NCBI GenBank assembly: GCA_020053375.1
Contig: JAGVNG010000008.1
Location: 1,587 to 65,586 of the forward strand
DNA length: 64,000 nt
Source of the DNA: Nanobdellota archaeon
GTDB taxonomy: Archaea > Nanobdellota > Nanobdellia > Pacearchaeales > GW2011-AR1
Direction of reading: 5' to 3'
The translations under genes were made by a program, and so were the position numbers. The notes beneath the pieces were generated by a model. The model was not told the DNA's origin. It saw nothing but the letters and a program-made list of their open reading frames with translations, and did not search any database. Shown here piece after piece: positions 55,826-64,000 of this stretch. Numbering within the stretch: the first letter of the stretch is position 1; the number at the start of each line of letters is the position of its first letter.

Positions 55826-56491
55826 ATGCAGATTCCTTCTAACATATCTACAGAACTGGCAGAAGAAGTAGGTTGGCACATTGGTGATGGAAGCATGAAT
55901 TTTTATAAAAACAGAGGAAAACTAAAAGGTCTCTATCAATTAAGGGGTCATATTGAAGATGATAAAGAGCATTATGAAAAAAGAATTAGACCTCTATTTG
56001 AAAAATTATTTGGTGTCAAATTGAGTATAAGAGACATGCCTTCTACAAGAGTTGTTGGATTTCAAATATGGAACAATGATTTAATCAACTTCAAGAAAAA
56101 TCTTGGACTTCCATTAGGATATAAATATAAAGTAGAAATTCCAACTGCATTCTTATTAAAGGGTAGTTTAAAAAGAGCCGTCATTAAAGGAATTTTTGAT
56201 ACAGATGGGGGAATTTATCTGCAAAGAAAAAATAATAAATTATATCCCCGGATATACATAACCACTATTTCCCTTGTATTATCTGAACAATTATTAAGAA
56301 TATTTGATGAATTCAGTCTTCGTGCTACAAGATATTCTCAATTATATAATAAAAAATTTAATAGAAAAAGGAGTTATATTGTAACAATTAGGGGAGTAGA
56401 TATGTTCCATAAATTTATGAAAGAGATTTCACCAAAAAATCCAAAGCATATTAAGAAATATCTGGATTTTCTCAACTCGCAAAACCTATAA
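55826..56491 (+). CDS. free-standing single-chain LAGLIDADG homing endonuclease
   Basis: EVGWHIGDGSMN and IKGIFDTDGGIY LAGLIDADG motifs. Confidence 0.65.
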   Translation: MQIPSNISTELAEEVGWHIGDGSMNFYKNRGKLKGLYQLRGHIEDDKEHYEKRIRPLFEKLFGVKLSIRDMPSTRVVGFQIWNNDLINFKKNLGLPLGYKYKVEIPTAFLLKGSLKRAVIKGIFDTDGGIYLQRKNNKLYPRIYITTISLVLSEQLLRIFDEFSLRATRYSQLYNKKFNRKRSYIVTIRGVDMFHKFMKEISPKNPKHIKKYLDFLNSQNL

Positions 56492-56667: not shown

Positions 56668-57093
56668 TTATATTTCTCCAAATAGAGAATATTCTAAAGA
56701 TTCCAGAGGCATATTTTTCCTAATTATCTGAAAACATTTTTCTTTTTTTTGACGAGCTCTCTCTCTCGTAATTTTGTATTTTTCTCCTATATCTTCTAAA
56801 GAATGAGATCTCTTATAAGGAGGAAGCCCAAAATACATCTTCATTATATCTTTTCCCCCTGCTGACAAACAATTTAAGCTGGTGTCCACAATTCCATTTA
56901 ATTCTTCTATTCTAAGTATATCAATTTTAGACCTAATATTTTTTGCTTTATTGTTCTCGTGGTTGGAACCGAGTAAAGCATATTCTAAAAATTTTATGAG
57001 GGGGCGATATTCATTTAATGCCCCTTGCACTTCCCAGTAAGTCAACTTGCCTTTTTGCTCAGTTCTTATATCTGCTTCCATTTTATTTGCCAT
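56668..57093 (-). CDS. small protein with sigma-70 region-4-like HTH
   Basis: HSLEDIGEKYKITRERARQKKEKCFQIIRK closely resembles the region 4.2 HTH consensus. Confidence 0.4.
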   Translation of the reverse strand: MANKMEADIRTEQKGKLTYWEVQGALNEYRPLIKFLEYALLGSNHENNKAKNIRSKIDILRIEELNGIVDTSLNCLSAGGKDIMKMYFGLPPYKRSHSLEDIGEKYKITRERARQKKEKCFQIIRKNMPLESLEYSLFGEI

Positions 57094-60231: not shown

Positions 60232-61959
60232 ATGAAGTATTCAAAGCTCTGTGAGTTATACGACAATATTTCAGGAACACCAAAGCGTCTTGAAAAGACA
60301 GACATACTTGCGAAATTCCTGAAAGAGCTTGCGGATTCGGACAAGGAAGCATTATATCTTCTTCTGGGAGAAATTTATGCCGATTATGATGAAAAGAGAA
60401 TTGGCATAAGCAATCAGCTAGTGATTAAGGCAATTGCAAAATCAACAGGGACTCCCAATGAAAAAGTGGTTCATGAATGGAAGGTAATCGGGGACCTTGG
60501 AAAAGTTGCTGAAAAACTTGTTTCTAAGAAAAAGCAATCAACTCTTTCATCGCATTCCGAAGTTACTGTCCAAAAGGTTCTTGAGAATTTGAGAAAACTG
60601 CCTGACTTAGAAGGTAAGGGAACAGTGGAAAAGAAAATCTCTCTGATAACCGAACTCCTGTCGTCTGCCTCGCCAAAAGAGGCATTGTACATAATTAGAA
60701 CACTTCTTTCTGACTTGAGAATAGGAATAAAGGAAAGCACCATCAGAGACGCGCTCGCGAAAGCATTTTTCAAGGAAAGTAAAAAAGACGCAATAAGAGA
60801 AATACAGGATGCCATAGACAAATCAAATGACATAGTTGAAGTTTTTGAGATGACTAAAAAAGGAAAGCTAAAGGACTTAAAGAAAGTGCACCTTGAAATT
60901 GGGAAACCCATCAAAGTCATGCTTGCCCAAAAAGCAAAAAACATCAAAGAAGCTTTTGAGGCTGTTGGAAAGCCATGCGCAATTGAATACAAGTATGACG
61001 GATTCAGAATGCTGATTCACAAGAAGGGCAATGAGGTAATCCTATTCACCAGAAGACTGGAAAATGTAACAAAGCAGTTTCCAGAGGTTATTGATTATGT
61101 AAAAAAATATGCCCGGGGAGATTCATTTATTCTTGATTCAGAGGCAGTTGGCTTTAACAGGCAAACAAAACAATACACTTCTTTCCAGAACATAAGCCAG
61201 AGAATAAGAAGAAAATATGATATAGAAAAACTGCAAGACGAGCTTCCAGTAGAGGTAAATGTTTTTGACATTCTTTATTATAATGGTGAGGCTCTTCTTG
61301 ACAAGCCTTTTAAGGAAAGAACAGAATTAATTAGGAAGATAGTGAAAAGTTCTCCTTACAAAATAATTCATGCAAAGCAGATAATAACCTCTGATGAAAA
61401 AAAAGCTAATGAGTTCTACAAGCAGGCATTAAAAGATAACCAAGAGGGAGTTATGTTCAAGAATCTCACTGCTATTTACCAGCCAGGAAAAAGAGTTGGA
61501 CATATGCTTAAAATAAAACCCGAAGGCAGAGACTTGGATTTGGTTATTACAGGAGCAGAATATGGAACAGGAAAGCGTTCAGGATGGTTTTCAAGTTTCA
61601 TCTTGTCATGCAAGGATGAAAAAACAGGAAAATATCTTGAGATAGGAAAAATGGGAACAGGGGTGAAGGAAAAATCCACAGCGCAGTCTGGGATAGGAAT
61701 ATCATTTAATGAACTTACTGAAAAACTCAAGCCATTAATCACAAAAGAGTCTGGAAAGACGGTTGAAATAAAACCAAAAATAGTTGTTGCAATAACATAT
61801 CAGGAAATCCAGCCTTCTCCAAATTACAATTCAGGCTTTGCATTGAGATTCCCCCGGTTCACTGCATTGCGTCCAGATAAAAGTCCTAGTGACGCCAATA
61901 CATTAGATAACGTCAAGAAGGATTTTGGAAGGCAGAAAAGAAACTGGCGATATGGCTAA
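60232..61959 (+). CDS. lig: ATP-dependent DNA ligase
   Basis: KYDGFRM (KxDG adenylation motif), EGVMFK, DLVITGAEYG. Confidence 0.85.
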   Translation: MKYSKLCELYDNISGTPKRLEKTDILAKFLKELADSDKEALYLLLGEIYADYDEKRIGISNQLVIKAIAKSTGTPNEKVVHEWKVIGDLGKVAEKLVSKKKQSTLSSHSEVTVQKVLENLRKLPDLEGKGTVEKKISLITELLSSASPKEALYIIRTLLSDLRIGIKESTIRDALAKAFFKESKKDAIREIQDAIDKSNDIVEVFEMTKKGKLKDLKKVHLEIGKPIKVMLAQKAKNIKEAFEAVGKPCAIEYKYDGFRMLIHKKGNEVILFTRRLENVTKQFPEVIDYVKKYARGDSFILDSEAVGFNRQTKQYTSFQNISQRIRRKYDIEKLQDELPVEVNVFDILYYNGEALLDKPFKERTELIRKIVKSSPYKIIHAKQIITSDEKKANEFYKQALKDNQEGVMFKNLTAIYQPGKRVGHMLKIKPEGRDLDLVITGAEYGTGKRSGWFSSFILSCKDEKTGKYLEIGKMGTGVKEKSTAQSGIGISFNELTEKLKPLITKESGKTVEIKPKIVVAITYQEIQPSPNYNSGFALRFPRFTALRPDKSPSDANTLDNVKKDFGRQKRNWRYG

Positions 61960-62485
61960 TATTAAACCTGTCAAAATAATCCACAAAGGTTCCATCTTCG
62001 TCTAATATATTTCCTTTATGTTTGATAACCCCTTCAAAATAACGCTTATCTTTGAGCCATCCATACATTAATTCGTCTCCAGCATTCTTCGGAACAAGGG
62101 GTACGTCTCTTTCATCAATCCATAAAGGTGTTCCTTCATTGCCTTCCCCCTTTAGTTCGCCACTATAATTTTTGGCACTAAAAACATATACCAAAAAATC
62201 CGTAGGATTTTTCCAATTGGGAAAAATTCTTTCTTTATTGTCAAATAAAATAACTCCTCTTAGTTTAGGCTTAATCAAAATCAAACCTGTTTCCTCATTT
62301 GTTTCTCTTATTGCCGATTCCAATCTTCCATCAAGGTTATCCAAACCTTTTTCGTTACTATCTAATTTTCCACCAGGCAAGGCATACAACCCTGAATTAG
62401 GGTCATTTTCCCTTACTTTCTTTTTCATCATCAAAACTTTGTCTTCAGCAGAGAGGTAGGAAATTGTTGCATATTTCATTTCCAC
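61913..62485 (-). CDS. NUDIX hydrolase
   Basis: GGKLDSNEKGLDNLDGRLESAIRETNEETGL (Nudix box GX5EX7REUXEEXGU). Confidence 0.75.
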   Translation of the reverse strand: MEMKYATISYLSAEDKVLMMKKKVRENDPNSGLYALPGGKLDSNEKGLDNLDGRLESAIRETNEETGLILIKPKLRGVILFDNKERIFPNWKNPTDFLVYVFSAKNYSGELKGEGNEGTPLWIDERDVPLVPKNAGDELMYGWLKDKRYFEGVIKHKGNILDEDGTFVDYFDRFNISHIASFFSAFQNPS

Positions 62486-62500
62486 AAATAAAAACAGGGC

Positions 62501-63520
62501 TTAATAAAAATTTGTATACTTCTGTTCAACTTTTTTCCTTAATTTAAAAGCATTAGCCCACTTTGCATAAGCGTTCCATCCTTGGAGGATTTCCGCCATT
62601 TTACTGCCTGATATTTTTCCTCGATTAAATTTTCCCATTTTTCTTTCAATATTTTTTATATTCTTTTTTCTTAATAATTTATAATAATAGAAATTCCTGA
62701 AACCGACAAAATCAATTCCTCTTGATAATAAGATAATTCTTGACTTATCTGGGTGAAGTTCCAGTTTTAATTTTTCTTCTAAGAATTGACTTATTCGTTC
62801 TTTCAAATTTTCTAATTGTTCTTTTGAATTGTGCAAAATAACAAAATCATCAACATATCTTATGTAATGCTTAGCTTTAAGCAAGTGTTTGACAAAATAG
62901 TCAAGTTCATTAAGATAAACATTTGCAAAAAATTGGGATGTTAAATTCCCTAAGGGCATTCCCTTTCCAGAGGGATTGTCTGAAACATTATTATTCAAAA
63001 TTCTTTTAATAAGCCAGATTACTCCTTCATCTTTTATCCTTCTTTTTATTATATTAAGAAGGATTTTATGATTAACTTCCTGAAAATAATGCTTTATGTC
63101 TGCTTTAAGGCAATATCCAGAAGAAGCATGGTTTTTGGTAACTTTTCTTCTAAATCTTTCAAATCGCTTCAAAGCAAATAAATTTCCTCTGCCTTTTCTG
63201 TTTGCGCATGAATCATAGATGAATGTCCTATCAAAAATAGGCTCAATAACCCTTACCAATGCATGATGAACAACCCTATCTTTAAAATTAGATTTTGAGA
63301 TTTTTCTCGTTTTTGGGTCTCTCAAAATGAATGTTATCAGAGATTTTGGTTTATAATAAAAGTATTTCAGTTCATAGTGCAGTGCTTTTAAATTATCCCT
63401 CAAATTTTTTTCAAATTCAATGACGTAATCTTTTTTTGTTTTGCTCTTTCTTGCCTTTTGCCATGCAAGAATTAAATTTCTCATTGAATAAATTTTAGGA
63501 TAAAGATTATCAGTTTCCAT
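62501..63520 (-). CDS. diversity-generating retroelement (DGR) reverse transcriptase
   Basis: RT motifs: RKISKSNFKDRVVHHAL (1/2), CLKADIKHYF (3), GMPLGNLTSQFFANVYLNELD (4; LGNLTSQ is the DGR-type [ILV]GxxxSQ rather than QGxxxSP), YIRYVDDFVIL (5, YxDD), LELHPDKSRII (6/7), IDFVGF; compact 339 aa; TR immediately upstream. Confidence 0.85.
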   Translation of the reverse strand: METDNLYPKIYSMRNLILAWQKARKSKTKKDYVIEFEKNLRDNLKALHYELKYFYYKPKSLITFILRDPKTRKISKSNFKDRVVHHALVRVIEPIFDRTFIYDSCANRKGRGNLFALKRFERFRRKVTKNHASSGYCLKADIKHYFQEVNHKILLNIIKRRIKDEGVIWLIKRILNNNVSDNPSGKGMPLGNLTSQFFANVYLNELDYFVKHLLKAKHYIRYVDDFVILHNSKEQLENLKERISQFLEEKLKLELHPDKSRIILLSRGIDFVGFRNFYYYKLLRKKNIKNIERKMGKFNRGKISGSKMAEILQGWNAYAKWANAFKLRKKVEQKYTNFY

Positions 63521-63550
63521 ATTAGCATCAAAGTCCTGAAAATATGGGCT

Positions 63551-63676
63551 ATTCCGAGGTCAGAATTCCTGTTGGAAGGATTCCTGTTGCAGTTGAGGTT
63601 AGCCCTGTCAGAATTGGCATTGAACCTGGCAACTTTTAGCCAATTTACCAATTCAAAAACTTTAAAAGTTTTCACC
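63551..63676 (-). repeat. DGR template repeat (TR). Only 63551-63627 can be aligned inside the window; the upstream boundary is inferred
   Basis: 63554-63627 aligns to VR 63927-64000 with 14 mismatches, all at TR adenines on the minus strand; the in-frame translation is Asn(AAC/AAT)-rich (FNANSDRANLNCNRNPSNRN). Confidence 0.8.
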
Positions 63677-63698
63677 GAATCTGTCCGCGGACAGATTC
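63677..63698. promoter_or_regulatory. perfect 22-nt palindrome GAATCTGTCCGCGGACAGATTC between the target-gene stop and the TR
   Basis: Self-complementary over its full length; sits at the likely 5' boundary of the TR transcript. Confidence 0.4.
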
Positions 63699-63892
63699 TG
63701 TATTTTATGACTTAAAATAAATCTAAATAATGTTCTAGTAAATTGACGTGTAGTCCATATTTATCTCTCTTGCTTCAGCATTTTTCAATTGCTCATTTTA
63801 AAAGATGCTTAAAAGACACTTTCAGGACAAACCATCAAATGAATGGATGTTTAAAAATTTTGTGTTTGTTCTTATAAATGTTTCCAGCGAGC

Positions 63893-64000
63893 CTATCCTC
63901 GCTTACCCTCCATAACGCCAAAAACCCCGAGGCCAGAATCCCAGTCGGAAGGATCCCTGCTGCAGTCGAGGCCAGCCCTGCCAGAACAGGCATCGAACCC
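63893..64000 (-). CDS. 3' end of the DGR target gene (truncated by the window edge) containing the variable repeat (VR 63924-64000)
   Basis: Minus-strand frame reads ...GFDACSGRAGLDCSRDPSDWDSGLGVFGVMEGKRG-stop (TAG at 63893-63895), codon-for-codon parallel to the TR with N->D/C/G/S substitutions. Confidence 0.75.
   Translation of the reverse strand, partial: GFDACSGRAGLDCSRDPSDWDSGLGVFGVMEGKRG

Follow-up and report, generated by a model that had tools for sequence, protein, structure and literature searches.

The minus strand at the far end of the 64-kb stretch of archaeal DNA analysed here (the window, 64,000 nucleotides) very probably carries a chromosomal diversity-generating retroelement (DGR) of a DPANN archaeon belonging to the Woesearchaeota/Pacearchaeota/Nanoarchaeota group. 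Elements of this kind are known to use error-prone reverse transcription to alter the tip of a binding protein. Its target gene is followed by a copy of RT-16, an Rfam RNA motif, which directly precedes the template repeat (TR), and covarying helices that reach across the repeat suggest that RT-16 and TR belong to one folded RNA. Unless stated otherwise, the parts of the DGR described below lie on the minus strand and coordinates are those of the window.

The largest direct repeat found in a repeat search of the region is the TR/VR pair, in which the TR (63627..63552) aligns without gaps to the variable copy (VR, 64000..63925) over 76 nt, with 60 identities and 16 mismatches. All 16 mismatches affect adenines of the TR (14 A>G and 2 A>T), 8 of the 24 TR adenines are kept in the VR, and all 52 non-A positions (21 C, 15 G and 16 T) are unchanged. 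The chance that 16 mismatches would be confined to 24 adenines among 76 positions is P = 6.8e-11, and for the 74-nt core with 14 mismatches it is 7e-10. This core had been described in an earlier note on the DNA as containing 12 A->G and 2 A->T changes, all at TR adenines, and re-alignment with tabulation of the substitutions reproduced it exactly, the changes falling at TR adenines only and none at other bases. The same note took the RT-proximal copy as the TR and the distal copy as the VR, an assignment that holds, since a reverse transcriptase (RT) of the DGR clade adjoins the invariant copy and the differences are A-only. No further VR-like copy occurs elsewhere in the 64-kb window.

Two of the 16 changes have a different origin. 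The earlier note had located them correctly (63552-3 versus 63925-6) and had added them to the products of mutagenesis. In nearly every related locus the last bases are GGAAT for the TR and GGGGT for the VR, and the window agrees; because this GG/AA difference is fixed across the relatives, the last two 'A>G' changes represent the difference between IMH and IMH* and not mutagenesis. With the IMH difference set aside, the mutagenic footprint proper covers 14 of 22 adenines. The IMH-like 3' end of the VR, CTCGGGGT (63924..63931), has the GGGGT ending of nearly all relatives, and GAAT within the IMH*-like 3' end of the TR, CTCGGAAT (63551..63558), is invariant in a 22-locus alignment. An IMH TGGGGT and IMH* TGGAAT pair has been described for Nanoarchaeota DGRs (PMC4372165). 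At the other end of the repeat, homology is seen for 63552-63627, and the 5' limit of the TR (63552..63634) was estimated from relatives as lying at about 63634; in the related locus L001, whose TR is nearly identical to that of the window, the TR starts 4 nt inside the RT-16 tail. As the TR of relatives begins 0 to 4 nt past RT-16, which ends here at 63631, the visible part (63925..64000) would amount to about 76 nt of a VR of about 83 nt, so the VR is probably almost complete, with at most about 7 nt missing. Judged from the relatives' sequences, the worry that non-A differences might appear in the unseen part of the VR is largely removed.

Twenty nt past the IMH, and spanning the stop codon of the target gene, is an inverted repeat, AGCGAG-GATAGG-CTCGCT (63886..63903). 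Folded as DNA it has a 6-bp stem, a 6-nt loop of GATAGG and an energy of -5.7 kcal/mol, with a z-score of only -1.6, and it is possibly a weak counterpart of the hairpin flanking the VR. A GRA triloop, as described in Nanoarchaeota-type DGRs, was not found after the window VR, where the loop is of 6 nt instead, whereas GC stems with GAA loops are common at the post-VR site in relatives.

The VR supplies roughly the final 25 codons of the target (variable-protein) gene, the 3' end of which lies at 63893..64000, with a TAG stop codon at 63895-63893. The remainder of the gene is beyond the end of the window, so that 35 residues of the protein, GFDACSGRAGLDCSRDPSDWDSGLGVFGVMEGKRG, are visible. A DPANN protein family of roughly 270 aa has the C-terminal pattern VA.F.A.S..A.L.C...PS....LGVF, and the peptide conforms to it, also at the invariant F, A, C, G and V. 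When the TR is read in the frame of the target, 23 of its 24 adenines are at codon positions 1 or 2, and the frame has 8 AAY, 4 AGG and 2 GAC codons; no stop codon can arise by substitution at TR adenines, and about 3e12 peptides are reachable. The translations of TR and VR given in the earlier note are correct, but the TR 'protein' is a formal translation only, because the region lies within a structured non-coding RNA. Likewise, no family match was obtained for a 64-aa ORF (63481-63675) that spans the TR and the start of the RT gene; it overlaps the structured RNA and is probably not a gene. Searches of the target proteins of relatives against Pfam and PDB sequences returned nothing significant; the target of the AAA011-G17 type gave a marginal match to AvpA (E 0.5), and a model of the target's closest homologue has a C-type-lectin fold. 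The known variable proteins with that fold, TaqVP (5vf4), TvpA (2y3c), Mtd (1yu0) and AvpA (5ioo), have no detectable sequence similarity to the target here, the subfamily of which differs from the AvpA of Nanoarchaeota DGRs.

The RT gene (62501..63520) starts 31 nt downstream of the TR and encodes a DGR-type RT of 339 aa, with a Pfam RVT_1 match of E 1.6e-26. Its best PDB match is the Bordetella phage bRT (8ub7_A, E 7.9e-44, residues 5-335), the next RT class among the PDB matches being at 1e-23. The DGR signature LGNLTSQFFANVY aligns with IGSLTSQLFANVY of bRT and YVDD is intact, so that both LGNLTSQ and YVDD are present, fitting the DGR-clade motifs [LIV]GxxxSQ and YxDD. The protein is under the cut-off for all NCBIfam RT classes, including group II, retron and DRT: it scores 161 bits with TIGR04416, which has a cut-off of 300, and 64 with the retron model, which has a cut-off of 235. 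An Rfam scan of 61500-64000 yielded neither group II intron nor retron RNAs. The next gene after the RT, separated from it by about 15 nt, encodes a NUDIX hydrolase (61913-62485, minus strand). In L001 the slot between RT and DNA ligase (L001:4001-4548) is occupied by a DUF2283/PBECR2 (toxin-antitoxin-like) pair in place of NUDIX, and no gene downstream of the RT is conserved across the related loci.

Relatives of the RT were collected by a scan of one genome per species, which found 436, and the best 80 of these 436 were the loci analysed for TR/VR pairs. Almost all of these best 80 are labelled Woesearchaeota, Pacearchaeota, Nanoarchaeota or Nanoarchaeia, with one 'bacterium'. The highest RT identity among the species-representative genomes is 75%, and metagenome contigs contributed 572 more relatives at identities of no more than 71%. 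A second strain for comparison of the VR was absent from the RT-based metagenome scan, the exact 28-nt VR-flank pattern has no match in the metagenome contigs, and exact look-ups found no identical protein on record for either the RT or the neighbouring DNA ligase. The 80 loci were compared with themselves by BLAST, blind, with the criterion that at least 80% of mismatches be at A, and 67 of the 80 have A-type TR/VR pairs beside the RT. In the pooled 71 TR/VR pairs, 893 of 1749 A sites differ (51%), compared with 42 of 4162 non-A sites (1%). The substitutions at template adenines are G in 577 cases (65%), T in 280 (31%) and C in 36 (4%); A>C is thus nearly absent, and the G-rich spectrum of the window is typical. 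The skew could reflect a misincorporation preference of the enzyme, or selection. Many relatives have two or three VRs for one TR, and so several target genes (L016, L031, L006, L054, L060, L067, L073, L076 and L078).

One of the relatives, L018, is Nanoarchaeota archaeon SCGC AAA011-G17, the genome of the first-described archaeal cellular DGRs (PMC4372165), and the window RT is 67% identical to its copy. The abundance of DGRs in Pace- and Woesearchaeota has been reviewed (PMC6349945), and that review cites Paul et al. 2017 for DGRs of these two groups. The window element, although from a different species, shares with the DUSEL4 Nanoarchaeota DGRs (Paul et al. 2015, PMC4372165) the order target-VR, TR, RT, the IMH GGGGT and IMH* GGAAT, and the placement of the VR in the C-terminal tail of a small protein without a Pfam match. 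It differs in the hairpin after the VR, which has a 6-nt loop here and a GRA triloop there. The slot in which 'Avd-sized' ORFs were drawn in 2015 (PMC4372165) is filled in the window by the RT-16 RNA, and those ORFs (Fig. 3 legend of that paper) may be an artefact of the same kind as the 64-aa ORF.

The window match to RT-16 (Rfam RF03019) is at 63631..63779, between the target stop codon and the TR and 111 nt upstream of the RT start. It is full length (model positions 1-158) and scores 62.2 bits (E 1.4e-8), above the Rfam gathering score of 50 bits, and it lies beside an RT gene, as in the family definition. RT-16 belongs to a set of 19 'RT' motifs discovered in the vicinity of RT genes and was left without an assigned function (Weinberg et al. 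2017, PMC5737381), RT-10 being the sole 'RT' motif that was tied to a DGR in 2017 (PMC5737381), and our full-text literature search returned no later functional statement on RT-16. Among 29 scanned loci of relatives, 25 contain RT-16, with its end 0 to 4 nt before the TR, and a regular expression for its two conserved boxes matched ahead of the RT gene in 108 of 161 loci. The RT-16 core is closed by helix P2 (63639..63747), in which GTCAATTTAC (63747-63738) pairs with GTAAATTGGC (63648-63639), and it contains a hairpin with a perfect stem of 9 bp (63677-63698). Pairing in P2 reaches 95.8%, and 7 of its 10 pairs show compensatory changes. In one relative an RT-16/TR unit with two VRs is on the strand opposite to the RT and convergent with it (L011:7834-10096). 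Template RNA and RT thus do not have to share a transcript.

How does RT-16 relate to the repeat that it precedes? The Rfam structure has no long-range pairing, whereas in the window the 5' arm of RT-16 pairs beyond the 3' end of the model. RNAalifold, applied to an unfitted MAFFT alignment of 22 loci covering RT-16, the TR and the RT start, recovered the Rfam helix P2 together with a new long-range helix, S2:S3. S2, ATGGACTA (63751..63758), lies just 5' of the invariant CAC(G) box, and its partner S3, TAGCCCAT (63551-63544), comprises the 8 nt past GGAA of IMH*. S2:S3 is 96% paired, has compensatory changes in 6 of 8 pairs, and its values were reached in 0 of 500 shuffles. CCA in S2 goes with UGG in S3 in 8/8 loci, and CUA or UUA with UAG or UAA in 14/14, and pairing falls to 24-49% if the partners are slid against each other, so that the support for S2:S3 is on a par with that for the accepted helix P2. 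In 91 non-redundant loci, all 8 pairs of S2:S3 form in 61 and 7 of 8 in 24. In the window one position of S2:S3 is an A:C mismatch, and the helix is missing from the MFE fold.

A second, outer helix is formed by S1, GTCCTGAAAGTGT (63816..63828), and S4, ATATTTTCAGGAC (63545-63533), which are complementary over a run of 13 nt. S4 is the conserved 'UCAGGA' stretch right past S3, the two together occupying 63533..63551, directly past the TR. Cognate S1/S4 pairs score 21.2 and non-cognate pairs 15.4 (Mann-Whitney P 3.6e-30), and the window S1 ranks its own S4 best of 91 partners. S4 matches S1 as its reverse complement and not as a direct repeat, and in L007, L049 and L035 the match extends to the loop bases. 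These comparisons used scores of ungapped runs and full-length MFE folds in place of RNAduplex energies, which, for the 105-nt upstream and 113-nt downstream segments, were uninformative because of the AT-rich sequence, being about -27 kcal/mol for any pair. Of the MFE folds of the 91 full RNAs, 74 pair S4 with the upstream segment, 55 contain S2:S3, and 22 have the local pairing of S2 seen in the Rfam model. The window RNA (63830-63515) folds with -84.5 kcal/mol (z -4.6) and is closed by S1:S4 in both the MFE and the centroid structure. The long-range pairing competes with an accepted Rfam helix, the local P1 hairpin of S1 with S2; in the cmscan alignment of the window this hairpin is poorly formed, with several non-canonical pairs, and its strands pair better with the post-TR segments than with each other. 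Two other pairings were rejected: a local post-TR hairpin S3:S4, which occurs in only 2 of 91 MFE folds, and pairing of S3 with the RT-16 tail GGCUA, which is unchanged where S3 is UGG. A TATA-like box, TTTTTAAA (63850..63857), lies 29 nt upstream of S1, and of the TATA-like motifs in 73 loci, 41 start at -29 to -25 relative to S1, a sharp peak. It is the putative archaeal promoter of an RT-16/TR/RT transcript.

The arrangement of these helices recalls the DGR of Bordetella phage BPP-1 (mtd-avd-TR-Sp-brt; particle PDB 8ub7), in which the Spacer (Sp) follows the TR and pairs with the TR 3' end in a template:primer duplex that ends in the priming A56, and, two nt on, forms a 'stop' duplex with a segment upstream of the TR, so that the TR is looped out (bioRxiv 10.1101/2023.10.23.563531). 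The same study reported putative upstream and downstream duplexes in 207 DGRs, with only 40 nt upstream of the TR inspected. The RTs of the two systems are homologous over their full length, and both systems have the adenine-specific TR/VR pattern and an IMH/IMH* pair. In the window RNA, S2:S3 abuts the AA of GGAAT, and S2 ends in an invariant A (63751); an unpaired CAC of 3 nt joins S2 to P2, the other strand of which lies 9 nt ahead of the TR. The two strands of P2 enclose the structured core on the 5' side of the TR, and S1:S4 zips the free ends. As in BPP-1, the TR of the predicted archaeal RNA is looped out between two adjacent duplexes, one beside the first templated base and the other just upstream of the TR, with 2 to 3 unpaired nt parting the primer-side strand from the second duplex. 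Unlike in BPP-1, the structured RNA is upstream of the TR and not downstream, so that the connectivity of the chain is permuted, and the host DNA is an archaeal chromosome and not a phage. We infer by analogy that the archaeal structured RNA is a circularly permuted counterpart of the phage Spacer, placed upstream of the TR. BPP-1 also has avd, whereas no avd gene was found at the window locus, although a copy may sit elsewhere in the genome: Avd families are absent from the ORFs near the RT, none of the matches with E < 2e-4 for the 74 window ORFs of 85-190 aa is to Avd, and the surroundings of the RT in 161 related loci have no conserved accessory ORF. An avd gene is present in 74% of DGRs and absent from 26% (PMC5758913).

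From these features a mechanism can be proposed. The transcript would start at S1, about 25 nt downstream of the TATA box, and the S1:S4 and S2:S3 helices would close off the RT-16 core and the TR. By analogy with A56 of the Bordetella phage Sp, S2:S3 would be the template:primer duplex and the invariant A63751 the cis-priming nucleotide. The RT would copy the TR from the AA of GGAAT towards P2, misincorporating opposite adenines, and P2, immediately 5' of the TR, would act as the stop duplex if the analogy with the Bordetella phage RNP holds. The resulting cDNA would replace the VR up to the IMH, re-randomising 8 Asn, 4 Arg and 2 Asp codons to give about 3e12 variants, which would fall on the ligand-binding face of a protein with a putative C-type-lectin fold. 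In the most specific form of this proposal, RT-16 acts in cis as the scaffold for a class of archaeal DGRs that do without Avd, a permuted version of the phage RNA with 2'-OH priming at A63751 and a stop at P2. We offer it tentatively, as a possibility with somewhat less than an even chance of being right. In such an Avd-independent system the RT-16 core of about 110 nt would stand in for the phage Spacer, and perhaps for Avd, in binding the RT.

RT-16 might instead lie outside the RT machinery, as a leader or regulatory RNA or as an element of the target 3' UTR with a local S1:S2 fold, the post-TR segments merely mimicking its strands. The local P1 hairpin of the Rfam model and the upstream pairing of S2 in 22 of 91 MFE folds would fit such a role, as would the partial self-complementarity of S1/S2 and of S3/S4, which makes both conformations possible. 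Against it, S2:S3 covaries as strongly as P2, S4 matches the reverse complement of S1 down to the loop bases, long-range pairing is favoured in the MFE folds (74 and 55 of 91), and RT-16 abuts the TR even in L011, where the unit is inverted relative to the RT; we regard a role outside the machinery as rather unlikely. The element could also be decayed or dormant, its footprint left by past diversification after homing had ceased. The footprint does come from one VR state, and the weak post-VR hairpin and the mismatch in the window S2:S3 would be in keeping with decay. Yet the RT ORF is full length, with YVDD and LGNLTSQ intact and an end-to-end alignment to bRT, and the TR, IMH, IMH*, RT-16, S1:S4 and promoter box are all intact. 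The identity of the non-A positions (52/52) leaves no sign of drift since the last homing event, and decay is accordingly quite improbable in our estimation.

There is next to no room for the view that the repeats are an ordinary duplication that has diverged by point mutation beside an unrelated retron or group II intron RT. In its favour, transitions predominate (14 A>G), and by itself this might point to ordinary mutation bias. The changes are, however, one-way and on one base (P 6.8e-11), an excess of A>G is the norm among relatives (577 G, 280 T and 36 C), and 67 of 80 homologous loci repeat the pattern. The RT, moreover, is nearest to bRT and far under the group II and retron cut-offs, and 61500-64000 is free of the Rfam group II intron and retron RNAs. 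The reading of the locus as a DGR, which the earlier note had proposed, is instead supported by the RT clade, the A-only changes, the position of the VR at the 3' end of an ORF, the IMH/IMH* pair and hundreds of like loci.

The neighbours of the DGR in the window are archaeal and chromosomal, and include genes for ribosomal protein L15e, an ATP-dependent DNA ligase and an Fe/Mn superoxide dismutase; the ligase is in synteny with the window in L001. ARAGORN found no tRNA genes in the 64-kb window, and neither tRNA nor tmRNA attachment sites are present in it. Elsewhere in the window there is a free-standing ORF for a LAGLIDADG-type homing endonuclease (55826-56491, plus strand; Pfam LAGLIDADG_3, E 1.3e-8) and one for a 141-aa protein with a sigma-70 region 4 helix-turn-helix (56668-57093, minus strand; E 1.2e-7), which is unusual in an archaeal genome. 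Small ORFs of the window include nucleotidyltransferase/HepT-like pairs and two zinc-ribbon proteins of the TFIIS/RPB9 type. In 11 loci the target gene is immediately preceded, about 2.9 kb ahead of the RT, by a gene for a member of a protein family of roughly 590 aa without a Pfam match; the L001 member (L001:52-1815) has a DxSGS motif that is, by eye, reminiscent of a vWA MIDAS site.

The DGR itself is one more example of a kind known to be abundant in DPANN archaea. For RT-16, an orphan Rfam motif, the analysis provides a concrete job, that of the template-bearing RNA of DPANN DGRs, and as far as we have searched the literature, neither this role nor the covarying helices that close the RNA have been described. 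The covarying helices suggest that archaea have retained the two-duplex geometry seen by cryo-EM in the phage particle, with the chain order permuted and no Avd gene nearby. The system is compact, consisting of one 339-aa RT and one RNA of roughly 315 nt, and could be used to probe which parts of DGR reverse transcription are universal; it might also serve as a small tool for targeted mutagenesis.
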